Below are positions 15-32,000 of a stretch of 32,000 nucleotides of DNA, piece after piece. Origin of the DNA: Ktedonobacterales bacterium (GTDB taxonomy: Bacteria; Chloroflexota; Ktedonobacteria; Ktedonobacterales; JADMIN01); the NCBI GenBank assembly GCA_030167145.1, contig CP126532.1, positions 4,260,001-4,292,000 on the forward strand. Direction: 5' to 3'. The notes under the pieces are model-generated. The model saw only the letters and a list, made by a program, of their open reading frames with translations, did no database searches and was not told the origin of the DNA. Numbering within the stretch: position 1 is the stretch's first letter; each line of letters starts with the position of its first letter. The translations under genes were made by a program, and so were the position numbers.

Positions 15-662
15 GTGGATGGATACCATCCCGTTACCGTTACACCAGGAGAACTGAATACTATGGCCACCGATGGCACGCCGGAACCGGCGGCAAAGCG
101 GTGCGGCGAAGCGATAGCGCGACTGCGAACGACGCGGCGCTGGTCACGGGCACAATTGGTAATCCGCCTGTTTGACGAACTCGCCCCCGATGATCCCAGC
201 TATAACAGCATCAGCGAGACATGGCTTGCGCGCCTGGAGAATGGGCGCATGGTCAAGGTGCCACGCCAGACCGTCGAAGCGATCTGCCGTGCGCTGCGAT
301 GCACACCCCAGGAACGCGCCGTGGTGCTGCTGCATGCCGACCGGAACGTTCTGACCGACCACGAACACGAGCCAACCGTCACGGGCGAGCTATTAACCTA
401 CGTGGTAGACCGCCTGCATACCGAGGCGCACGACGTGCTCAACACCCTGGTTGGGCATCGCGACCTTGCTACGCTCGATGAGTTGGAACTACTCGAAATC
501 ACCTCCACAGCGCTGGATTTGCTGATCGCACGCCGCTGCAAGCAGCAGAGCGTTGGCGATGGCCGCGCGGCAGTGAGTGGCACGTTCGCACGCAATGGCC
601 ACAATGGCCATAACGGTCATATCACGCTGGTGCCACGCCTGAGCAGCAAGACCGGCGCATAG
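15..662 (+). CDS. XRE-family helix-turn-helix transcriptional regulator
   Basis: 215-aa ORF bounded upstream by TAA at 3-5. The N-terminal third (CGEAIARLRTTRRWSRAQLVIRL...SISETWLARLENGRMVKVPRQTVEAICRALRC) fits the XRE/HTH_3 pattern. The start is uncertain: GTG at 15 or ATG at 63. Confidence 0.65.
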   Translation: MDGYHPVTVTPGELNTMATDGTPEPAAKRCGEAIARLRTTRRWSRAQLVIRLFDELAPDDPSYNSISETWLARLENGRMVKVPRQTVEAICRALRCTPQERAVVLLHADRNVLTDHEHEPTVTGELLTYVVDRLHTEAHDVLNTLVGHRDLATLDELELLEITSTALDLLIARRCKQQSVGDGRAAVSGTFARNGHNGHNGHITLVPRLSSKTGA

Positions 663-7698: not shown

Positions 7699-9066
7699 TT
7701 ACGTTGGGTTGTTGAAGCCTTCGTTGGGCACGCCGAGGTAGGGGAACGAGGTGAGGAATGGGACGTTGTTGTCTTTGGGGGTCAGGCCATCGGTGATGAC
7801 CGACGATGCCGCGTCGGGCTTGAATGCGGGGTTAATCAGCGGGTAGGTGACACCGGCGATGGCGCGTAGCTCGATGGTGACGACGTCGTCGAAGACGCGG
7901 CGGCCATTAGGGAAGCCAGCCAGATCGCCGCCCAGCAGCCCCAGAATGTTCGGACTGCTCGACGGGGGGATGGCCATATTCAGCCGCAAGAGGTCGGCGG
8001 GTGTGGGACCGGTGAAGTTCTGGAAGCCGGGGATCAGGCCCGCCGGTATGCCGGTGAGCAGAATGGCGACCAGATCGGCGCGCACAGCGGTAAGGGCTGC
8101 CAGGTTGGGGAAGACGCCCGGATAGAGCACGGGGAGCAGACCCGCAAGCTCTGGGTGTTGCACGTACTTGAGGAACTGGCTGTCGTCCTTGGGGTCCAGG
8201 GCGTTCCAGCGGTCTTTATCGCCTATCGGCACGATGACTTCGTTGAAGAGGGGATTGCCGAGCCGCGAGACCTGCACCCATGGGCCACTTTCGGTATCCG
8301 GCCCCTGCGCGCCGTTGCGTATCACGCCTTTGCGGCGGCTGGCCGAGGCGTAGATGCCGATGATCGAGCGGGGAGCCTTGGGATCGGTGGGCATGGCGCC
8401 GTCGCGCGTGAGTTGATTCTTGGGAATCTGGAGCGCGATGGTGTGTACGTTGAAGCCTTTGCTTGTGTTGACGCCAGGTTCGGCGGGCATGGGGAAGATA
8501 TGCAGATTTTGGAAGGGCCGGAGGGTGGCGAGGTCGAAGATCGCGCCAAGGTCTACATAGAACCCTTCGGCGCGCTGCCCAGCGAAGACGGTCTCGCCGC
8601 TGGTGAGCCGGTGGACGGCGGCCTGGGCCAGCGCGGGATAGTTGGGCGTGGATGAGGGGCCGATGCGGCAGGGTGGCGAGGCCAGCCCACTGCTCAGCAG
8701 CCGTGTCGCGCCGTTCTTGATCTTTGTCACGGAATAGAACTGGCGCACATTCCAGTTCGGACTATTCAGCGAGGTGATCTGGCCGGTATTGTAGAGGAAA
8801 GTTTCAGGGTTGCTGATCTTCGTCTGGAAGCGGAACTGGTAGGTGATGTTTTCAATGCCGTCGCCATCGTTGTCAATGTTGATTTCGTAGACCACATCGT
8901 CACCAAATTGGAAGAAGTTGGGGCCGCCGGCCGGTTCTTCCAGAGGGATGTAGTTGGCGATGATGGTCACGGTGTCGGTCCGGTCGGGACTGACAAACGC
9001 ATAGACATCGGTGTTGTCGGCGACGGGATCGTTGGCGATTTCGGGTGCTTCGCGGTGGGATGACAT
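7699..9066 (-). CDS. DUF4331 family protein
   Basis: I chose the start at MSSHREAP (ATG 9066..9064), with AGGAGA 7 nt upstream. The N-terminal SHREAP...DNTDVYAF...IANY.P.E.P.GGPNF..F..D..Y.I.IDN.GDG is the hallmark of DUF4331. 455 aa. Confidence 0.75.
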   Translation of the reverse strand: MSSHREAPEIANDPVADNTDVYAFVSPDRTDTVTIIANYIPLEEPAGGPNFFQFGDDVVYEINIDNDGDGIENITYQFRFQTKISNPETFLYNTGQITSLNSPNWNVRQFYSVTKIKNGATRLLSSGLASPPCRIGPSSTPNYPALAQAAVHRLTSGETVFAGQRAEGFYVDLGAIFDLATLRPFQNLHIFPMPAEPGVNTSKGFNVHTIALQIPKNQLTRDGAMPTDPKAPRSIIGIYASASRRKGVIRNGAQGPDTESGPWVQVSRLGNPLFNEVIVPIGDKDRWNALDPKDDSQFLKYVQHPELAGLLPVLYPGVFPNLAALTAVRADLVAILLTGIPAGLIPGFQNFTGPTPADLLRLNMAIPPSSSPNILGLLGGDLAGFPNGRRVFDDVVTIELRAIAGVTYPLINPAFKPDAASSVITDGLTPKDNNVPFLTSFPYLGVPNEGFNNPT

Positions 9067-23705: not shown

Positions 23706-23846
23706 GCGCGCGGAACGCCGTGGGCGCACGCCGTGCGCCCCTACGGGGGACGAATGCCGTGTGTCGCCGCGAGCGTGGCCCTTGCCCTGCTGAAATGCGT
23801 TGCGCGCCGTCTGGCGCTGTGGCGTCGTTTCAGGAGGGCATTTTTC

Positions 23847-25139
23847 ATGGGTATGTTGCCTGCTCGTGTGGCGCGGTATCGCGCCTTTGCCAGCGAAGGT
23901 GGTCCGCGCGATTTCGTGCAGGATGTGGCATCAGTGCAGCCGGAACCATCGGGGCAGCCGGAGCCGTCTAGAGAGCCGTCAGAGCCGGTGGCGCTGGACC
24001 CCGAACGCCAGCGGCTGGCGAAGCGGTATGCGCGGCAGCGGCAGGCGCTTTCATTGGTGAACCTGGGCATCAGTGCGGTGGTGATTCTGGTGCTGCTCTT
24101 CGGCGGGGTGAGCTTTGCGCTGCGTGATACGCTGGCGGGCGTGAGCGGGTGGGAGCCGTTGCCATCCTGGCAGCCGTTGCGGGTGGGCGCGTATTTTCTG
24201 GTGCTGTTCGCGGCGACGCTGGTGATTGGATTGCCGCTGTCGTATTACAGTGGGTTTGTGCTGCCGCATCGCTATGGCCTCTCGACGGAATCATTTGGTG
24301 GGTGGGTGCTGGATTTTGTCAAGGGATTGGCGATTTCGCTGCCGATTGAGTTGCTGGCGGTGCTGTTTGTGTATGCGCTGCTGGCCGTGGCGCCGGAGAG
24401 CTGGTGGCTGTGGACGGGGCTGGCGATGCTGTTCGTGACGGTGATTCTGGCGCAGTTGGCTCCGGTGCTATTGGTGCCGATTTTCTATAAGCTGACGCCG
24501 CTACCCGATGGGGATGTGCGGCGGCGGGCGTTGCGGCTGGCGGAGCAGGCGCGGACGCGGGTGCGCGGTATCTACTCGATGAATCTGAGCGCGAAGACGA
24601 CGGCGGCGAATGCGATGGTGATGGGGCTAGGCACGACGCGGCGGATCATCGTGGGGGATACGCTGCTGGAGCACTATACGCCGGATGAGATCGAGGTGGT
24701 GCTGGCGCATGAGTTGGGGCATCAGGTCCACAACGATATTCCGAAGCTGATCGCGGTGGAGAGCGTGACGACGCTGGGCGGGCTGTATCTGGTGAATGTG
24801 GTGCTACATGCGGTGGTGGGGCGTGTGCCAGAGTATCACGGGCTGGCGGATCCGGCGACGATGCCGCTGGTGGCGGCGGCGCTGGGGGTGTTCGCGCTGG
24901 TGCTGTTGCCGCTGACGAATGGTTTCAGCCGGTGGGTGGAGCGGCAGGCGGATGTGTATGCGCTGCAATCTACGGGCAAGGCGCCGGCGTTCATCAGCGC
25001 GATGACGCGGCTGGCGAATCAGAATCTGGCGGAGGTGGAACCGTCGCCGGTAATCGAGTTTTTGCTGTACAATCATCCGTCCATTGGGCGGCGGCTGGCG
25101 CTGGCGCGGGAGTGGGAGGCGGGGGAGTCGCGGCCATAA
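23847..25139 (+). CDS. M48 family (Ste24/HtpX-like) zinc metalloprotease
   Basis: I chose the start MGMLPARV (ATG 23847) because AGGAGG sits 9 nt upstream. It has multiple N-terminal TM helices, HELGHQVHND (HExxH) and a NAMVMGLGTTRRIIVGDTLL block. 430 aa. Confidence 0.85.
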   Translation: MGMLPARVARYRAFASEGGPRDFVQDVASVQPEPSGQPEPSREPSEPVALDPERQRLAKRYARQRQALSLVNLGISAVVILVLLFGGVSFALRDTLAGVSGWEPLPSWQPLRVGAYFLVLFAATLVIGLPLSYYSGFVLPHRYGLSTESFGGWVLDFVKGLAISLPIELLAVLFVYALLAVAPESWWLWTGLAMLFVTVILAQLAPVLLVPIFYKLTPLPDGDVRRRALRLAEQARTRVRGIYSMNLSAKTTAANAMVMGLGTTRRIIVGDTLLEHYTPDEIEVVLAHELGHQVHNDIPKLIAVESVTTLGGLYLVNVVLHAVVGRVPEYHGLADPATMPLVAAALGVFALVLLPLTNGFSRWVERQADVYALQSTGKAPAFISAMTRLANQNLAEVEPSPVIEFLLYNHPSIGRRLALAREWEAGESRP

Positions 25140-25217
25140 ATGGCCGGAGCAGGGTGGCCTGTTCGGAGGGTAACGGCGAGTTCGCATAGACCTATGTCAG
25201 TATGCTAGGGGAGTTCG

Positions 25218-25538
25218 ATGGTGAAAATAGGGGCTACAGTTATCGCTTGCATGGGATTGGCATCATTACTCCTCTCGCCGTATTTAGCCTTTCGCGGCTA
25301 TCTGCGTACTCGCGACCGCTGGCCACGTGCGCGAAAAATATGGACTCGATACGGTGGCGCCTTTGCGCTGGCTTCGATAGCATTCCTCATTAATGGAATC
25401 GATTTGATGTCACTCATACCTGTGGAAGCGAGAGTTATTGTGTCTTTGGCGGCCTTTCTCCTCATTATAGTGGCTGGTCTCGTGTATGTCTGGGGGGCAT
25501 ACTATCAAGGCCTAGACAAGCTGCTGTTTGAGGATTAG
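25218..25538 (+). CDS. small membrane protein (first gene of the low-GC island)
   Basis: 106 aa with 3 hydrophobic segments. AGGGGAG lies 6 nt upstream. The codon composition is low-GC, unlike the upstream genes. Confidence 0.5.
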   Translation: MVKIGATVIACMGLASLLLSPYLAFRGYLRTRDRWPRARKIWTRYGGAFALASIAFLINGIDLMSLIPVEARVIVSLAAFLLIIVAGLVYVWGAYYQGLDKLLFED

Positions 25539-25598
25539 GCGAATCTTACTCCAGAGTACTGACACAGATTGCGGCGTTGGGGAATGATAATCCTCCGC

Positions 25599-26045
25599 TT
25601 ATTCGCTATACATGCCGAAATCCTGGCTGATTTGCGTCAAACGAGCGAGGGCCTCGCGCCTGCTGGTGTCGCGCTTACGCTTATAGTCCATGAGGTCGCT
25701 GACAAGGATGCGGCGATGGGTTCCGGTCATCACGTAGGGAATCTCGCCACGTTCGAGTACCTTGATGAGGTAGGGGCGTGACACGTTGAGGATCTCTGCC
25801 GCCTCCTGTGTAGTGAGTTCTTTGTTGATAGGCACGACGGCGACCGCCTGATTATGCGCCAAATGTGGGATTACCTGTCTGAGCAGCCGCACAATTGATG
25901 GCGGCAGTTCTGTCGCTTCTCCGGCAGCGCTTACAAGCTTGGGGGCGTGTTCCTCCGCGAGAATGCTCTTTACTTCATCGAGTTGCGATTGCTCACCCTC
26001 GGCTGCGATAACTGGCCCCTGCTCGTGAGTTCTGTTGGCGCCCAT
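25599..26045 (-). CDS. excisionase-family (MerR-superfamily) helix-turn-helix DNA-binding protein
   Basis: I chose the start MGANRTHEQ (ATG 26045..26043) because GGAAGGGAG lies upstream. LTTQEAAEILNVSRPYLIKVLERGEIPYVMTGTHRRILVSDLMDYKRKR fits the excisionase-type HTH seen in Xis proteins and in antitoxins of PIN-type TA pairs. 148 aa. Confidence 0.7.
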   Translation of the reverse strand: MGANRTHEQGPVIAAEGEQSQLDEVKSILAEEHAPKLVSAAGEATELPPSIVRLLRQVIPHLAHNQAVAVVPINKELTTQEAAEILNVSRPYLIKVLERGEIPYVMTGTHRRILVSDLMDYKRKRDTSRREALARLTQISQDFGMYSE

Positions 26046-26077
26046 ATGTGTCGCTCCCTTCCGCTTTCGCGCAGTGT

Positions 26078-26107
26078 AGTATAGCACAATTTTTGTATTA
26101 TCCGCAA
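26078..26107 (-). promoter_or_regulatory. extended -10 promoter candidate for the HTH gene
   Basis: The minus strand reads TTGCGG (26107-26102), an 18-nt spacer ending in TGC, then TATACT (26083-26078). The leader to ATG 26045 is about 26 nt and contains the SD. Confidence 0.55.
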
Positions 26108-26302
26108 TATGTGAAATAAGCGAAATGCCGACGTGAGGTGCCGTTAACCGTTGCTCATGCTTTGCTATTGCCTCGTTATTTGTTTTGCTATCACGCCGTG
26201 AATACAATCACCATCTTGGCCTGACCCAGGCGCTGCTTTTCTTGTTTCTCTTGACTCTCCGTTACAAAATTTCAAGGGTGCTGACATATTTTGTGATAGG
26301 TA

Positions 26303-26331
26303 TTGACAGCTTGTACCAAATTGCGTATAGT
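26303..26331 (+). promoter_or_regulatory. near-consensus sigma70 promoter of the island operon
   Basis: TTGACA (26303-26308), exactly 17 nt of spacer, TATAGT (26326-26331). Confidence 0.7.
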
Positions 26332-26390
26332 TTCGCTCAGTGAGGTTGTTTTGGCTGAAAGTGTGTGGGACGCCTGTTGAGGTAAGGCCC

Positions 26391-26533
26391 GTGTCCCCGT
26401 GTCCCCGTGTCCCCGTGTCCCCGTGTCCCCGTGTCCCCGTGTCCCCGTGTCCCCGTGTCCCCGTGTCCCCGTGTCCCCGTGTCCCCGTGTCCCCGTGTCC
26501 CCGTGTCCCCGTGTCCCCGTGTCCCCGTGTCCC
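26391..26533 (+). repeat. perfect tandem repeat (GTGTCCCC) x about 18
   Basis: 143 nt with an 8-nt period and no variant unit visible. It lies between the promoter and the SD/ATG of the 26562 gene. The complement is (GGGGACAC)n. Confidence 0.95.
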
Positions 26534-26561
26534 TTTACTATAGTTAAGGAGCAAGTCCACG

Positions 26562-27662
26562 ATGGGTCGCGTACAACGTCAACTACTTCCCGTTACTCTA
26601 GTAACAACCCTGGCTTTGGTGCTGTGTGTGCTTAATTTAGCCAGCGGCGGATTTAGTGCTCATGCACAGCCATCAGTACCGTGCATTGCGGGCACAGATA
26701 CTGGTTGCCCGACCAGTGGCAACTGGTATGGTTCTAGCTTGGATTGGATGATCACCGCAACAAACGACTGGTTTCAGAAGAAAGATTTCTGGTGCGGAGT
26801 GGCAGTAATCCAAGCAATGGAGAGATATGATTGGCTTAAGTATGATGGAAACGCAAGCCCTACATACGAATCGCAGTATTCGCTAGGCTATAACACGGCG
26901 AATCACGATCCATACAATGGCTTGCTCAATACGTCTGCGGCGATTAGTCCTTGGGGACAGGCTGACCCAGGCCTTAATGGTCCTGGCCCCAAATTTGTCG
27001 CTGATATCGCCGCTGATGGAGGGTTGGATCCTCGTGGTCTTGCATGGGGAATTTGGGATGTGACACCCAACGGCTACTACTTCCACAATTGGATCTACGA
27101 AACAGGAAACACCACTGCAGGAGCCAAGTCAGCAACAAACGACTTTGCCGCCGATTATGGGCCGCACAACGGATTGAACGATCCCATCGCGGTGGCAATC
27201 AACACAGGCATGCATTTCTTCGTAATCGATGGGGTCTGGGCCTCAAGCGATCCTTCCGCAGGAGGCGACACACTTTACGACATTGATACGTGGGATCCAT
27301 GGCTCAACCAGGCAGGTGCGTCTTTTGATGGAACCTATCCCTACAACACGTCGATCAATGAAGTCTGGTCATTGTCCGACTGGCTAGGGCAGACAAATCA
27401 AGGTCCGACCTGGATGTGGCAAAATCCCTACAACACAGCAAACAAGTATGATCCTGATCCTAGCACTGGCCTATTCGGTCACCCGGGATCCCCCTACTAC
27501 GATCAGCCGCTGCCCGCGCCTAACAATCAGACGGGCCACTGGAACACGTACTGGGTCACCATTGAGCAAGATGAAGTGACTTCCTGTCAGGCAAGCCCAA
27601 ACATTGCATACGATCAGAACGGTAATCCGTCACCGCACAACGGAGTTGTGTACTGTCCGTGA
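26562..27662 (+). CDS. secreted protein, candidate C39-like (papain-fold) cysteine peptidase
   Basis: AAGGAG (26546-26551) lies upstream of the ATG. It has a signal peptide (LLPVTLVTTLALVLCVLNLASGGFSAHA). The candidate catalytic residues are Q-x5-C in QKKDFWCGVAVIQAM, His in TGMHFFVIDGV and Asp in DIDTWDPW, in the order and spacing of C39-like peptidases. The C-terminal part is W/Y/N/P-rich, with Cys pairs near both ends. Confidence 0.55.
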   Translation: MGRVQRQLLPVTLVTTLALVLCVLNLASGGFSAHAQPSVPCIAGTDTGCPTSGNWYGSSLDWMITATNDWFQKKDFWCGVAVIQAMERYDWLKYDGNASPTYESQYSLGYNTANHDPYNGLLNTSAAISPWGQADPGLNGPGPKFVADIAADGGLDPRGLAWGIWDVTPNGYYFHNWIYETGNTTAGAKSATNDFAADYGPHNGLNDPIAVAINTGMHFFVIDGVWASSDPSAGGDTLYDIDTWDPWLNQAGASFDGTYPYNTSINEVWSLSDWLGQTNQGPTWMWQNPYNTANKYDPDPSTGLFGHPGSPYYDQPLPAPNNQTGHWNTYWVTIEQDEVTSCQASPNIAYDQNGNPSPHNGVVYCP

Positions 27663-27737
27663 TTAGGAGGGGCCAAGTTTGCCCCACCGCATTGCCCCTG
27701 ATTGTTATGGCACCATTGTGCTCGAAAGGATAGTGGG

Positions 27738-28559
27738 ATGTCACGCAACAGAAGCCGCGCCTACTCGTGGCAGGCATCACATTCTACGCGACCCAGTAAG
27801 TTTACGTATGCAACTGTACTTGGCGTGATGGTACTCCTTGTGGGAGTTCTGATGTGGCATGCCAACGGGGCGGTTCCCGCAACTAATACCGCTGCCGGTG
27901 TAGCTACAGCACCTTACAGGGGAAAACCACTCTCGTGGTGCGGATCGGTTAACCAGCCAGAGTGTCCTACAGTCGATCCAGGCTGGGTTACGCTAAACTC
28001 GAACCTACCCGATGCTGCGTCCATTGCAATTGCCAGGGCGCGAGAATTCAAGTCTTTGCAGTCGCGATACGGTTACACCGCGCTTGATTTGCCAACGCTC
28101 GTACATGCCTTTGGGGCGCACACAGGGATCGGTTATTACGATGATGATCATTGGGTAGTGTCTGTGCGAAATGCGTCAGGACGAGAATGTGGTATCTTTG
28201 ATTTTGTCTATGATAGGGCAAATCATCGCATCCGCTTCTCTTCGTTCGGCTTGATATTGCCACAGGATCCCCGCTCAACCAAACCGTTTCCTTATATCTC
28301 ACCCGCATCAGCTATGGCGGAACTTCAGAGCGAGCGTAAGTTAGCTCCGCTTTCCGGTGCCCAGCCAGAACTAGTCTTTTTCCCAATCGATCCGCGATAT
28401 CGCGATCCTTCTTCCCCGGTGAAATGGTTTGGAGGAGGTGAGGCACCTGATGATCCAACATGGCTCATCGTAGGATCAGACGGACAGAGCTATTTTGTTG
28501 GGCATGATATGCGTGTCCATAGTCTTCAGGAAGTGCCAATCGCTGTGGGCCAACCATAG
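27738..28559 (+). CDS. N-terminally membrane-anchored extracytoplasmic protein, unknown function (possible tandem PepSY-like folds)
   Basis: ATG 27738 with AAGGA 7 nt upstream. It has a basic N-terminus and then a TM helix (TYATVLGVMVLLVGVLMW). Two segments show a helix followed by strands (AASIAIARAREF...HWVVSVRNASGRECGIFDFVYD and SPASAMAELQSE...TWLIVGSDGQSYFVGHDMRV). 273 aa. Confidence 0.55.
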   Translation: MSRNRSRAYSWQASHSTRPSKFTYATVLGVMVLLVGVLMWHANGAVPATNTAAGVATAPYRGKPLSWCGSVNQPECPTVDPGWVTLNSNLPDAASIAIARAREFKSLQSRYGYTALDLPTLVHAFGAHTGIGYYDDDHWVVSVRNASGRECGIFDFVYDRANHRIRFSSFGLILPQDPRSTKPFPYISPASAMAELQSERKLAPLSGAQPELVFFPIDPRYRDPSSPVKWFGGGEAPDDPTWLIVGSDGQSYFVGHDMRVHSLQEVPIAVGQP

Positions 28560-28606
28560 GTAGCCGCTAGCCAAGACAAGTCGGATCAATTCCGATGTGC
28601 CCATCT

Positions 28607-28648
28607 CCATGCATGCAACCTCCATTTCTATGATGGTTACATGCATGG
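28607..28648 (+). promoter_or_regulatory. strong intercistronic stem-loop
   Basis: CCATGCATGcAACC-14 nt loop-GGTTaCATGCATGG pairs 13 bp with one mismatch. It lies between the second and third island genes, and no T-tract follows. Confidence 0.4.
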
Positions 28649-28714
28649 ATCTTAGTTAAACGGTAAAGAGATGCAAAGATCCCTTTGTGCTCAAGAGGTA
28701 AAACGGAGCAGGCG

Positions 28715-29263
28715 ATGAGCAACAAGTTGAGATGGATATGGGTTGTGCCGTTGTTGGCGCTGCTGACGCTGCTGGCGGGGTGTGGCCAATCATCAGGAAG
28801 TGTGGCAGGTCTGCCGTCTGGTTGGTCATGGCATCATGACGATCACTATCCGTTTGATGCGCCTGTTCCGCCGCAATGGAGTGTGGCGAGTTTCACCAAT
28901 ACGCAATCTCCCGGCGATGAGTGTGAATATACGGTCAATTTCTTCCCGCCAGGAAGGGAGGCTATTTCAGAACGCGCGGCCAGTGAGCTTGAGCCTGAAC
29001 TCATTGCAATAACGGTGAAAGGAAGTTGCCCACTGGCGGATCCATCTCATGACACGGATTGGACGCCGGAGGCGGGGAGAATCAACGTAGGAGGGACGAT
29101 GTGTACGGTCTATGATCGGGCACCTGAGCCGGATCGGATGGTGGTGGCGACGTTTGGTGGCCATCAATATCTCTTCTACATGCAGTCTCCCGCCAACACA
29201 GCGCAGCGAGACGAAATGCTCTTCAAGCAAATGCTGGAGCGTTTCAGATATACGGGCAAATGA
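28715..29263 (+). CDS. lipoprotein, unknown function
   Basis: ATG 28715 with GGAG 7 nt upstream. The signal peptide carries a lipobox (LLTLLAGC). 182 aa with no recognised domain. Confidence 0.65.
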   Translation: MSNKLRWIWVVPLLALLTLLAGCGQSSGSVAGLPSGWSWHHDDHYPFDAPVPPQWSVASFTNTQSPGDECEYTVNFFPPGREAISERAASELEPELIAITVKGSCPLADPSHDTDWTPEAGRINVGGTMCTVYDRAPEPDRMVVATFGGHQYLFYMQSPANTAQRDEMLFKQMLERFRYTGK

Positions 29264-29284
29264 GCTAGCGGGCTACACGGCAAG

Positions 29285-30922
29285 CTACTCCATGGATCCG
29301 TGGACGAGCGCGCCGCCGATGAGGGTGGCGGCGACGGGGAGGGCGGCAAGACGGTCGGGCGGGATGGTGAAGGGGTCTTCGGCGAGGATGACGAGGTCGG
29401 CGAGTTTGCCGGGGGCGAGCGACCCCTGATGCGCTTCCTGGCCGCCTGCGCGGGCCGCGCCAACGGTGTAGCCCCAGAGCGCCTGGGCGACGGTGAGCGC
29501 CTGGTCTGGCAGCCAGGGCGTGCGGTCGGGGGTGGTGTCGTCGCGGCGGTTGACGGCGGCATGGAGCACGCGCAGCGGGTCGCAGGTGTCTACGGGGATG
29601 TCGGAGCCGAGGGCGAGCGGGATGCCTGCCTGGCGCAACGTCTGGTAGGCGTAGGCGCGGCGGTGCCGCGCGCCCCAGTGGTGTTCGGCGGTGTCGCGGT
29701 CGGCGACGGCGTGGAAGGGCTGGACGGAGGCGGCGACGCCGAGGCGGGCCATGCGCTGGATGTCTTCGGGGGCGGCAAGCTGGACGTGCTCCAGGCGGAA
29801 ACGGCGAGCGGCGAGGGGGTCGGAAGTTGCGTCGGCGGTGGCGTGGGCGCGGTGGGTGAGGTAGGTTTCGATGCCATCGAGCGCGGTGCGCACGGCACGG
29901 TCACCGATGGCGTGGATGGCGACGCCGATGCCGCTGGATGCCGCCTCGGCGACGGTGCGGGCGGTGTCTTCGTCGCTCATGGTGAGCAGCCCACGGCTGG
30001 ATTGGCCTTCGTAAGGGTCGAGCATGGCGGCGGTCTGCGCGCCCAATGCGCCATCCATGAAGAGCTTGATACCGGCGAAGCGCAGGTAGTCGTCGCCGAA
30101 ACCTGCTTGCAGGCCGAGCCGGACGGCATCGGCGAGCGATTGGCGGGGGATGTAGAGCAGCATACGCGGGCTGAGCGCGCCTTCGCGGTGGAGGCGCTGC
30201 ATCAGGCGGAGGCTGCGGTCGCCCTCGATGTTGTGGACGCCGGTGACGCCACGGGCGCGCAGTTCGGCCAGCACGCGGCGCAGTTCGGCCAGCACGGTGT
30301 CGTCGTCGGGTGGGACGATGACCTGCTCGACGAGATCGGTGGCGTCCTCGAAGAGCATGCCGTCTGGCTCGCCGTCGGGTCCGCGTCCTATACGCCCGGC
30401 GGGCGGGTCGGGGGTGGTGGCGTCTATATTCGCGGCGCGCAGGGCGGCGGAGTTGACCCAGAGGGCGTGATAGGAGTGGTCGCGCAGGGCGACGGGGTGC
30501 TTGGGGGCAGCGACATCGAGGCTGGCTTTGGTGGGGAATGCGCCGCCGGGCCAGTGGTTCTTGTTCCAGCTATGGCCCTGTATCCATGCGCCGTTGGGGG
30601 TATGTTCCGCGCGCTGGCGCACACGGGCGGCAGCTTCGTCTTCGGAGGGAATGGCGCGCAGGTCTACGGAGATGCGGCCTTCGGCGTACATCATCAGGTG
30701 GGTGTGGGCGTCTATGAAGCCGGGGAGGACGGTCTTGCCGCCGAGGTTGAGGGTGTCGGTGAGGGGGCCGGCGAAGGCGCGGATGTCGGCGTCGTCGCCC
30801 ACGGCAAGGATGCGCCCGGAGGAGCGGTCCACGGCGAGCGCGGTGGCGCGCGGCTGGTCGGGGTTCATCGTGTGGATGGAGCCGCTGAGCAGCAAGAGGA
30901 TGGGGCGGCGACCGGTGAGCAT
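29285..30922 (-). CDS. amidohydrolase (Amidohydro_3 / YtcJ-like metal-dependent hydrolase)
   Basis: 545 aa. The motifs are LPGFIDAHTHL, VAIHAIGDRAV, FRLEHVQ and ALGSDIPV. Confidence 0.85.
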   Translation of the reverse strand: MLTGRRPILLLLSGSIHTMNPDQPRATALAVDRSSGRILAVGDDADIRAFAGPLTDTLNLGGKTVLPGFIDAHTHLMMYAEGRISVDLRAIPSEDEAAARVRQRAEHTPNGAWIQGHSWNKNHWPGGAFPTKASLDVAAPKHPVALRDHSYHALWVNSAALRAANIDATTPDPPAGRIGRGPDGEPDGMLFEDATDLVEQVIVPPDDDTVLAELRRVLAELRARGVTGVHNIEGDRSLRLMQRLHREGALSPRMLLYIPRQSLADAVRLGLQAGFGDDYLRFAGIKLFMDGALGAQTAAMLDPYEGQSSRGLLTMSDEDTARTVAEAASSGIGVAIHAIGDRAVRTALDGIETYLTHRAHATADATSDPLAARRFRLEHVQLAAPEDIQRMARLGVAASVQPFHAVADRDTAEHHWGARHRRAYAYQTLRQAGIPLALGSDIPVDTCDPLRVLHAAVNRRDDTTPDRTPWLPDQALTVAQALWGYTVGAARAGGQEAHQGSLAPGKLADLVILAEDPFTIPPDRLAALPVAATLIGGALVHGSME

Positions 30923-31078
30923 GGTGATGACGCTGGCTTTCTTGGCGCGCCGCGTGGGCGGCGCTCAGACACTTCGGGGTGAGCATATTCTACCGTATGA
31001 ATAGGTCCCGGCCAATGTGCGGAGAGAGCGGGAGCAAAAAGGGTGGTTGCATGCGAACGGGCGTCCGCCGGATTGTGC

Positions 31079-31103
31079 GGGCGTCCGCCGGACGCCCCTA
31101 CGA
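31079..31103 (-). repeat. REP-like element (family R1) with adjacent half copy
   Basis: GGGCGTCCgccGGACGCCCCTACGA is preceded by the half copy GGGCGTCCGCCGGA at 31059-31072. It lies in the divergent intergenic region. Confidence 0.85.
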
Positions 31104-31138
31104 ACGTGGGGACGTGGTGGACAACTGCCCTCGCTTTC

Positions 31139-31167
31139 TTGCGCGGGTTGGGGGCGCATGTTACACT
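31139..31167 (+). promoter_or_regulatory. extended -10 promoter candidate for the MDR dehydrogenase gene
   Basis: TTGCGC (31139-31144), 17-nt spacer ending in TGT, TACACT (31162-31167). Confidence 0.5.
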
Positions 31168-31207
31168 GGGCGGCAGTATGCTGGGCAAGGTGGAGGCGAA
31201 TCATCCG

Positions 31208-32000
31208 ATGTGGAGCGCGTATCTGAAGATGAGTCCGGTGCGTGTGGCGGCGACACGCACACTCGGCACGGTTTCGCGCCGTGCGTATTACGGGCCGCTG
31301 GCGCCGCTGCGCGCGGGCAGAATCCGCAAGGCGACGCCGCCCGGCAGGCGATGGGTGCGGGTGCGCAACAGTGTGGCGGGGATCGCGGGCGCGGATGTGG
31401 CGCGGGTATATCTGGACGAGGATGGGCGCATTGCGTTGGCGGCGCTGCCCCGGCAGAAGCGCATCTACCTGGGGAGCGAGGTGGCGGGCGAGGTGGTGGA
31501 TGTGGGGCCGGAGGTGGAGTTCTTGCGCGTGGGCGACCGTGTGGCGTATCAACTGGACGTGTGCTGCGCGACGCGGGATATCGAGCCGCCGTGTGAGCAG
31601 TGCGCGGCGGGGAACTATCGTCTCTGTGCGAATCGCTATATGTCTGGGCCGCGCGGGGTGGGCGGTGGCTGGGGTGATGAAATGCTGCTGCATGAGCGGC
31701 AGCTTTTTCTCGTGCCAGACACGCTGGCGGATGAGCAGGCAGCGCTGCTGGAACCAGCGGCGATGGCGCTGCATACGGCGCTGCACCATCTACCACAGCC
31801 AGGCGAGCAGGTGCTGGTGATCGGCGCGGGCACGACGGGCCTGCTGACGATTCAGGCGCTGCGGGTGCTGGCGCCCAGCGCGACGATTGCCGTGCTGGCG
31901 CGGTATCCGTTCCAGGCGAAGATGGCGTGGCAGATGGGGGCGAGCGCACTGCTGGACCCGAAGAAGGACACGGAGGATGTGGTGTCCGCGACGGGCGCAC
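31208..32000 (+). CDS. medium-chain dehydrogenase/reductase (zinc-ADH fold) family protein, 3'-truncated by the window end
   Basis: This ORF runs off the window, is absent from the ORF track, and I translated it by hand. It shows a GroES-like domain, the structural-zinc loop PPCEQCAAGNYRLC, and the Rossmann motif VLVIGAGTTGLLTIQ. I prefer the start ATG 31208 (MWSAYL, GGTGGAGG 10 nt upstream). ATG 31178 is an alternative that would be nearly leaderless. Confidence 0.75.
   Translation, partial: MWSAYLKMSPVRVAATRTLGTVSRRAYYGPLAPLRAGRIRKATPPGRRWVRVRNSVAGIAGADVARVYLDEDGRIALAALPRQKRIYLGSEVAGEVVDVGPEVEFLRVGDRVAYQLDVCCATRDIEPPCEQCAAGNYRLCANRYMSGPRGVGGGWGDEMLLHERQLFLVPDTLADEQAALLEPAAMALHTALHHLPQPGEQVLVIGAGTTGLLTIQALRVLAPSATIAVLARYPFQAKMAWQMGASALLDPKKDTEDVVSATGA

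Follow-up and report, generated by a model that had tools for sequence, protein, structure and literature searches.

A compositionally foreign interval between two convergent genes of a Ktedonobacterales bacterium carries a conserved envelope operon with a candidate cysteine peptidase and an octamer leader array

We analysed a 32,000 nucleotide (nt) stretch of DNA (contig CP126532.1, positions 4,260,001 to 4,292,000, assembly GCA_030167145.1; hereafter the window) from a Ktedonobacterales bacterium, known as a metagenome-assembled genome (MAG; NCBI locus tags OJF49_; JGI record Ga0494333_323). Within this window, positions 25140-29284 form an island of low guanine-plus-cytosine (GC) content between two host genes, which encode an M48 membrane metalloprotease and an amidohydrolase and converge on the island. 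It carries a gene for a small membrane protein, a gene for a helix-turn-helix (HTH) protein, and a three-gene operon for exported proteins, here named A, B and C, with a perfect octamer array in the inferred 5′ leader of A (Table 1). The stop codons of the amidohydrolase gene and of C are only 21 bp apart. A preliminary description, read from the sequence of the window, had counted six genes in the interval. Five are credible (OJF49_004123-004127 in the NCBI annotation), and a sixth call in the JGI record is a 56-amino-acid (aa) antisense open reading frame (ORF) lying over the end of B.

The interval is compositionally foreign. Its GC content is 0.530, compared with 0.642 (standard deviation 0.010, minimum 0.623) in 210 host windows each as long as the island, a deficit of 11 standard deviations. 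The preliminary description had reported an abrupt drop after the M48 stop codon and a recovery at the amidohydrolase stop codon, and the computed profile indeed steps sharply at both edges: a maximum-likelihood two-breakpoint fit to the composition places the breakpoints at 25186 and 29260, at the M48 (25139) and amidohydrolase (29285) stops. The low-GC codon usage that it had ascribed to the island genes is likewise borne out, as GC at third codon positions (GC3) is 0.47-0.57 in four of them and 0.65 in the HTH gene, versus 0.78 in the M48 gene and 0.87 in the amidohydrolase gene. The low GC content extends to the genes outside the operon and to the intergenic DNA of the island. We considered the amino acid composition of the island proteins as a reason for this deficit. 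Because recoding with host codons would give these proteins a GC content of 0.61-0.64, protein composition is not the cause.

Two further measures set the interval apart from the host DNA. The plus-strand GC skew is 0.03 in the island versus 0.224±0.054 in host windows, and the Karlin dinucleotide distance is 0.085 versus 0.044±0.0125, with a host maximum of 0.072. GC, GC3, GC skew and the dinucleotide signature each step at gene boundaries. The lack of host-type 9-mer doublets in the island had also been taken as a mark of foreign origin. Twelve period-9 doublets occur in about 27.9 kb of host DNA, and the zero count in the island is not significant, because only about 1.8 would be expected over 4.1 kb (Poisson probability of zero about 0.17). 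The host DNA (window positions 1-25139 and 29285-32000) has an unusually strong excess of G over C on the plus strand, which averages about 0.22 and reaches 0.39 per 300 nt window. This skew is independent of gene strand (0.255 for the M48 gene on the plus strand, 0.238 for the amidohydrolase gene on the minus strand), and it is weaker in L003, a contig of the same genome (L-numbers denote the comparison loci and contigs that we fetched).

Table 1. Features of the island and its flanks (positions in the window), and related octamer arrays in other loci
Feature	Coordinates	Strand	Evidence and properties
Left flank, host M48 (Ste24/HtpX-like) membrane metalloprotease	23733..25139	+	Pfam Peptidase_M48 E 5.5e-27, Peptidase_M48_N; GC 0.643, GC3 0.78
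Left junction	25140..25217		Compositional breakpoint ~25186
Small membrane protein, 106 aa	25218..25538	+	ORF; ~3 hydrophobic segments by eye; GC 0.50; OJF49_004123
Excisionase/antitoxin-type HTH protein, 148 aa	25599..26045	-	HTH_17 at residues 77-125; Pfam HTH_17 PF12728 E 1.5e-12; TIGR01764 E 5.2e-15
Operon promoter, sigma-70-type, near-consensus	26303-26331	+	TTGACA-17-TATAGT; consensus scan, 11/12 matches
Octamer array in inferred 5′ leader of A	26388-26533	+	Tandem Repeats Finder (TRF), 100% matches; (CCCGTGTC)x18.2, unit CCCGTGTC (= GTCCCCGT rotated), 18.2 copies
Gene A, secreted 366-aa protein with signal peptide	26562..27662	+	Divergent C39-like (papain-fold) cysteine peptidase candidate
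Gene B, 273-aa single-pass membrane protein, N-terminal anchor	27738..28559	+	Extracytoplasmic alpha/beta domain; near-obligate partner of A
Strong hairpin, B-C intergenic	28606..28649	+	Inverted repeat, 20-nt arms
Gene C, 182-aa lipoprotein	28715..29263	+	Lipobox LLAG/C, sequence read; third, accessory operon gene
Right flank, host amidohydrolase Amidohydro_3	29285..30922	-	Pfam E 3.2e-97; GC 0.708, GC3 0.87
L063 array	L063:1-83		Unit GTCCTCGT; at least 10 copies, contig begins inside array
L042 array	L042:~88-104		Unit CTCGTGTC-type; ~2 copies
L107 array	L107:1329-1405		Unit GACCTCGT; 9.5 copies
L043 and L044 arrays	L043:7885-7904; L044:1-20		Unit GACCTCGT; 2.5 copies

To compare the site with that of other genomes, we collected 34 loci that encode M48 relatives in a set of species-representative genomes, 16 of them of Ktedonobacterales type. 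These 16 carry M48 orthologues of 62-78% identity and share genes upstream of M48 (histidine kinase, p104, p74), and none has an island gene within 10 kb of M48. The M48 gene lies beside the amidohydrolase gene in some relatives: orthologues of the latter (70-72% identity) are convergent with M48 in L008, L009 and L010. In L009 the gap between the two genes is 79 bp of host GC content. The gap in L008 (11198-11705) is 508 bp, holds a 149-aa ORF and has a reduced GC content of 0.58, and that in L010 (7269-9811) is 2.5 kb of host GC content with a gene for an unrelated 590-aa BNR-repeat exported protein. A tblastn search at E<=1e-5 found no remnants of A, B, C or the HTH gene in the relatives' gaps. 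Because the content of the gap differs among relatives, the space between the M48 and amidohydrolase genes is a variable spot, and the island is particular to this genome.

A second synteny class (L006, L013, L015, L017 and L020) is also without island genes, and here M48 is followed by carboxypeptidase-like and aldehyde dehydrogenase-like genes, as judged by motifs in the ORF sequences. A few kb downstream of M48 in L015 (6117-7340) lies a 407-aa ORF with a Cys-rich C-terminal motif, CTSCGLVLDRDENAARNI, which we take to resemble TnpB/IS605-family proteins. On the right side of the island, conservation with relatives begins exactly at the amidohydrolase stop codon. Aligning either junction with the intergenic DNA of relatives gave nothing informative beyond coding sequence. 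The composition of the interval, the 79 bp gap in L009 and the absence of island genes from the 16 relatives agree with the preliminary description in that insertion at the M48/amidohydrolase site is well supported. No Rfam family was found in the island.

The operon is a member of a conserved family. We surveyed 72 distinct loci and counted adjacency only where enough sequence was present. Of 48 such loci, 47 have A immediately before B, and among 46 of them C comes immediately after B in 23. Homologues of A form 34 clusters by word search, and a profile search of 1.84 billion proteins yielded 167 representatives; B homologues form 129 clusters. All named members of the family are Ktedonobacteria. 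The genome analysed here has a second A-B-C operon (L003:8001-10616), whose proteins are 39-41% identical to those of the window. The preliminary description could not place the island proteins in any characterised system. Scans of the window proteins against Pfam, NCBIfam, PHROGs and PADLOC assigned no family to A, B, C or the membrane protein and returned only HTH and trivial signal-peptide matches. Likewise, Foldseek searches against PDB and BFVD gave no match at E<=0.001, and sequence-profile searches of PDB with three alignments gave none. The set A-B(-C) can now be placed as a conserved operon of Ktedonobacteria with a candidate C39-like cysteine peptidase as its first product, and B and C are still without a known family.

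Several features of A suggest a possible papain-like fold. Two residues, Cys78 in an (N/H)WCG motif and His218, do not vary among 33 sequences and show 90% or more conservation across 58 distant ones. In an AlphaFold (AF2) model of A (mean predicted local distance difference test score, pLDDT, 77; predicted template modelling score, pTM, 0.79), helix 78-95 begins at Cys78 and strand 218-227 begins at His218. A Cys at the start of a helix together with a His at the start of a strand is the papain-like arrangement of clan CA. The top of the Foldseek list against PDB consists mostly of papain-like proteases and deubiquitinases, the best of them at a non-significant E of 0.16. Furthermore, Peptidase_C39_2 (PF13529) matches 15 of the 58 distant A-family members at E<=0.01, all sub-threshold (best E 7.2e-5; best score among the ten first scanned 22.2 bits, with a cut-off of 24), and in alignment with A the matched part takes in its Cys motif as well as its His motif. 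These invariant residues, coupled with the weak sequence and fold evidence, make A a candidate for a divergent C39-like papain-fold cysteine peptidase.

The likeness to Peptidase_C39_2 lies in the N-terminal Cys of the (N/H)WCG motif at a helix start and in a His at the start of a β-strand about 140 residues further on. In contrast to members of that family, A scores nothing against the Pfam model, bears about 120 further conserved residues at its C-terminus (DPDP...HW...TIEQD), and always comes together with B, a protein for which no counterpart is known. Peptidase_C39_2 is among the catalytic domains of phage lysins that act on Gram-positive bacteria (PMC8223927), which makes an envelope or peptidoglycan substrate plausible for A. 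Seven of the distant A relatives (P0175, P0178, P0186, P0188, P0205, P0255 and P0261) are longer, at 600-720 aa, and have C-terminal extensions; one of these proteins has a weak DUF5719 match.

The ectodomain of B is well folded in its AF2 model, with most blocks at pLDDT 84-98. An inhibitor role of cystatin or PepSY type was considered for B and set aside as speculation, because it rests on non-significant fold matches (cystatin-, monellin- and PepSY-like, E 0.26-0.7). Protein C has a signal peptide, MSNKLRWIWVVPLLALLTLLAG, which on reading the sequence ends before the lipobox Cys, and its signal region gave weak LptM-type lipoprotein matches. It is 38% identical to the third gene product of the paralogous operon and 31% identical to that of L040, and no known domain was found in it. 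The RNA of the spacer between B and C (28560-28714) has a predicted folding energy of -49.1 kcal/mol (z -3.65; none of 200 shuffled sequences was as stable). The hairpin within it is not followed by a run of T residues, and it may be an element for processing, stabilising or attenuating the transcript within the operon.

The preliminary description had noted two near-consensus promoters in the island. The one upstream of A merits the name (Table 1), and the likely HTH promoter is weaker. A similar arrangement, TTGAC[AT]-N16-18-TAnnnT, is also present upstream of A in L003, in L043/L107 and in eight other loci. The octamer array starts about 56 nt past the -10 hexamer and ends 28 nt before the ATG of A; it is perfect and unique in the window. 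Arrays of octamers with the consensus GWCCYCGT lie between the promoter and the start of A in four operon lineages, including that of the window. We counted 41 occurrences of this motif in 14,952 nt upstream of A, versus 46 in 824,596 nt of background.

Copy number differs within a sister lineage of the operon. Specifically, L107 and L043 are 100% identical over the 179 nt upstream and the 150 nt downstream of their arrays, and their sole difference is six units and a further eight bases. This difference (9.5 copies in L107 versus 2.5 in L043 and L044) was seen in a related array, and the array of the window is spanned by one assembly. The contigs L002, L044 and L063 start inside arrays, as would be expected if assemblies break at repeats. 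Two roles for the array were considered and rejected. A stable RNA structure is not predicted for the leader, which appears unstructured (z +0.71). The window array reads (GGGGACAC)n on its template strand, where a G-quadruplex could be imagined, but runs of G do not arise from the related units GTCCTCGT and GACCTCGT.

Repeats between promoter and start codon are known to set the expression level of two Moraxella catarrhalis genes, by a poly-G tract in uspA1 and by 6-23 copies of AGAT in uspA2 (PMC4679880), and arrays of the heptamer TAACTGA offer a descriptive parallel (PMC4679880). The octamer array resembles these repeats in that short units are perfectly repeated in a leader and the gene behind it encodes a protein that is exported or at the surface. 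Further likenesses are the variation in copy number between sequences that are otherwise the same, as in L107 and L043, and the homogenisation of units within each array. In contrast to these repeats, its unit is the octamer GWCCYCGT, and its host is a free-living member of Chloroflexota and not a host-adapted pathogen. The octamer is also tied to one gene family and is not genome-wide. The copy number of the array may tune the output of the operon through slipped-strand change.

The paralogous operon has a repeat of another kind near its start (L003:7934-8001). A good Shine-Dalgarno sequence precedes an ATG at 7952, a run of nine C residues (C9) occupies 7962-7970, and an early stop codon follows. 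Removing one C from this run brings a family-typical signal peptide, MRFTPPLRYVQIRIGSVFAVVFALAF..., into frame; in the annotation the gene starts with a GTG codon at 8001. The C9 tract could act as a frameshift switch based on a homopolymer, or it could be an error of sequencing.

The remaining two genes of the island differ from the operon in their distribution. The 106-aa membrane protein has no above-threshold match in the four family collections and forms a singleton cluster; its gene is convergent with the HTH gene and lies 60 bp downstream of it. Homologues of the HTH protein were found in 352 plasmid records, at 40-53% identity to the plasmid copies, and there were none among viral contigs. 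Of three plasmid contexts examined, two (pEI-2234-3 of Edwardsiella and pCRI9333.05 of Crinalium) have a PIN gene directly after the HTH gene and an adjoining tyrosine recombinase gene. The island protein shares the architecture of about 150 aa with these plasmid copies and differs from them in its surroundings, having the convergent membrane-protein gene downstream instead of a PIN gene or its remnant; no PIN similarity was found anywhere in the island or the window. The earlier label of an orphan excisionase-type HTH protein is confirmed in that it is of HTH_17 type and has no partner toxin, and is amended in that it is antitoxin-like, with a PIN gene beside two of the three plasmid homologues examined.

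Both the membrane protein and the HTH protein are absent from all of the other operon loci (approximately 80). Co-occurrence of the HTH gene with the three genes for exported proteins had been suggested as a check, and it is seen in none of them, so the HTH protein is not a dedicated regulator of the operon. Because these two genes never accompany the operon elsewhere, and because the HTH protein belongs to a plasmid-borne family, the island is composite and not the self-contained module of the preliminary description.

We consider it probable that the interval consists of DNA that is not ancestral to the site, composite in make-up and inserted between the convergent genes, with A-B-C and its octamer leader array as the main cargo. 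In contigs with a flank GC content of 0.49-0.55 the operon has the GC content of its flanks (mean difference -0.004, n=33 loci), and cultured Ktedonobacteria have GC contents of 49-55% (PMC6497799). As is usual for horizontally acquired islands, GC and GC3 drop sharply, the dinucleotide signature is deviant, the genes are absent from the orthologous site, an HTH protein of mobile-element type is present, and the DNA lies in a convergent intergenic space. Unlike the usual case, the cargo belongs to a family found throughout the class Ktedonobacteria and has a paralogue in this genome, and in most of the high-GC contigs examined the operon is likewise low in GC.

Several observations weigh against insertion of foreign DNA. 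At the island we found no tRNA gene, mobility gene or recombinase gene, and no att-like or terminal direct or inverted repeats; with no integrase, tRNA or terminal repeats left, the mechanism of insertion is invisible. At 54-56% identity, even the nearest homologues of A and B do not represent a sampled donor. The second operon of the genome has the same low GC content (0.536 versus flanks of 0.65-0.70), and in most contigs with a flank GC content of at least 0.60 the operon is 0.03-0.13 poorer in GC than its flanks (for example, 0.574 versus 0.703 in L045 and 0.574 versus 0.647 in L043, which forms one lineage with L044/L106 and L107). In rough neighbour-joining (NJ) trees, built for A and for B, the copy in the window joins L042 first and next the paralogue of the same genome and L063, outside a large clade of low-GC hosts. 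As for the cargo itself, A matches no Pfam or NCBIfam model and has no significant fold match, and B has no Pfam domain and no significant sequence or fold relative.

These comparisons suggest that the GC deficit in high-GC contigs is a persistent property of the operon rather than a sign of recency. Across loci, regression of operon GC on flank GC gives a slope of 0.40 (r 0.46). Two loci depart from the trend: L103 has no deficit (flank 0.595, operon 0.605), and in L119, which has B only, the gene is richer in GC than its flanks (0.664 versus 0.613). Because the paralogous operon, only about 40% identical, is equally low in GC and the two copies cluster together, low GC cannot serve as a clock for transfer here. 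The flanking proteins of relatives are only about 65-78% identical, and with relatives at this distance the insertion can be dated only as since a fairly deep split. The preliminary description's claim of recent horizontal acquisition is thus not shown, and neither a donor nor a date of transfer is supported. At a distance of 2.4 kb from the paralogous operon there is a second low-GC island (L003:13000-15250, GC 0.50-0.55 versus 0.65-0.70). Its five small ORFs have no Pfam domain, and the two largest were without a match when scanned. The presence of this island of unrelated ORFans suggests that the genome gathers low-GC DNA in general.

The most substantial rival to insertion of foreign DNA holds that the operon is native, vertically inherited, anciently duplicated and relocated, and intrinsically low in GC through codon or regulatory selection, an AT-preferring nucleoid protein or escape from the GC drive of the genome. 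The two 40%-identical copies in one genome, both at a GC content of 0.53-0.54, would fit such a history, as would the deficit in most high-GC contigs with its shallow regression, the grouping of the window copy and the paralogue with L042 and L063, and the separate clade formed by the operons of other high-GC contigs (L045 and the L043/L044/L106/L107 lineage). We nevertheless regard a native origin as rather unlikely. The deficit in the window is shared by the unrelated membrane-protein and HTH genes and by the spacers, with breakpoints at the flanking stop codons, and the replication-strand GC skew of the host is missing from the island. Furthermore, the site is empty in L009, the paralogous operon has an island of unrelated low-GC ORFans nearby, L103 and L119 lack the deficit, and the NJ trees are rough.

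Alternatively, the island could be ancestral at the site and have been deleted from those relatives in which the M48 and amidohydrolase genes are now neighbours. At 65-78% identity these relatives are distant enough for losses to have occurred, and the varied gap content of L008, L009 and L010 would be compatible with them. We judge this history very unlikely. It needs independent losses or replacements in three lineages, the second synteny class is also without the island genes, and the 11-standard-deviation GC deficit, the lost skew and the deviant dinucleotide signature are left unexplained. Even less credible is an assembly chimera in which low-GC DNA of another Ktedonobacterium was wrongly joined to this genome. 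A chimera is conceivable in a MAG with a perfect 146 bp repeat that breaks short-read contigs, as illustrated by L002, which begins within the array. However, L002 is an independent Logan contig that reproduces the right junction, running from A-B-C to the amidohydrolase and ADH genes. The JGI and NCBI records are each a single contig of about 5.07 Mb, and the second operon of the same sample lies within a contig of 26.5 kb, where the DNA to either side of it is high in GC.

Under the reading that we prefer, insertion of foreign composite DNA, this DNA would have entered a high-GC genome at the short space where the M48 and amidohydrolase genes converge. It would most probably have come from lower-GC Ktedonobacteria, in one or more events that left behind no integrase, tRNA or terminal repeat. 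Besides A-B-C, it comprises the orphan HTH gene without a PIN partner and the orphan gene for the small membrane protein. In the operon, A is predicted to be a Sec-exported peptidase that B may tether or regulate, joined in about half of operons by the lipoprotein C. All three proteins are predicted to act at the outer face of the cytoplasmic membrane, where A might cleave envelope or peptidoglycan substrates. The near-consensus promoter would drive the operon, and slipped-strand changes in the copy number of the octamer array, which is located between this promoter and the ribosome-binding site, might tune its expression.

A broader proposal, which we offer tentatively and hold to be possible yet doubtful, is that A-B-C is an envelope peptidase system specific to Ktedonobacteria whose expression is set by a hypermutable GWCCYCGT array, inherited with the operon, homogenised at each locus and ranging from 2 to at least 18 copies; the C9 tract of the paralogue would perhaps act likewise. 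Switching by the octamer array may also be connected to the persistently low GC content of the operon in high-GC hosts.

The island as such is of an ordinary kind. What is worth following is the operon family, its persistent low GC content and its variable leader. A-B-C represents a new operon family, a conserved and unannotated envelope operon of two to three genes; none of its three proteins is covered by a Pfam or NCBIfam model, and A offers a peptidase hypothesis that can be tested. The finding that low GC is no simple clock for recent transfer in this lineage matters for automated island callers. The recurrence of the array across operon lineages and its varying copy number in identical backgrounds make repeat-mediated expression switching testable outside the host-adapted pathogens in which it has mostly been studied. 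If the proposed role of the array is true, Chloroflexota would gain their first described contingency-type switch, found moreover in a free-living soil bacterium.

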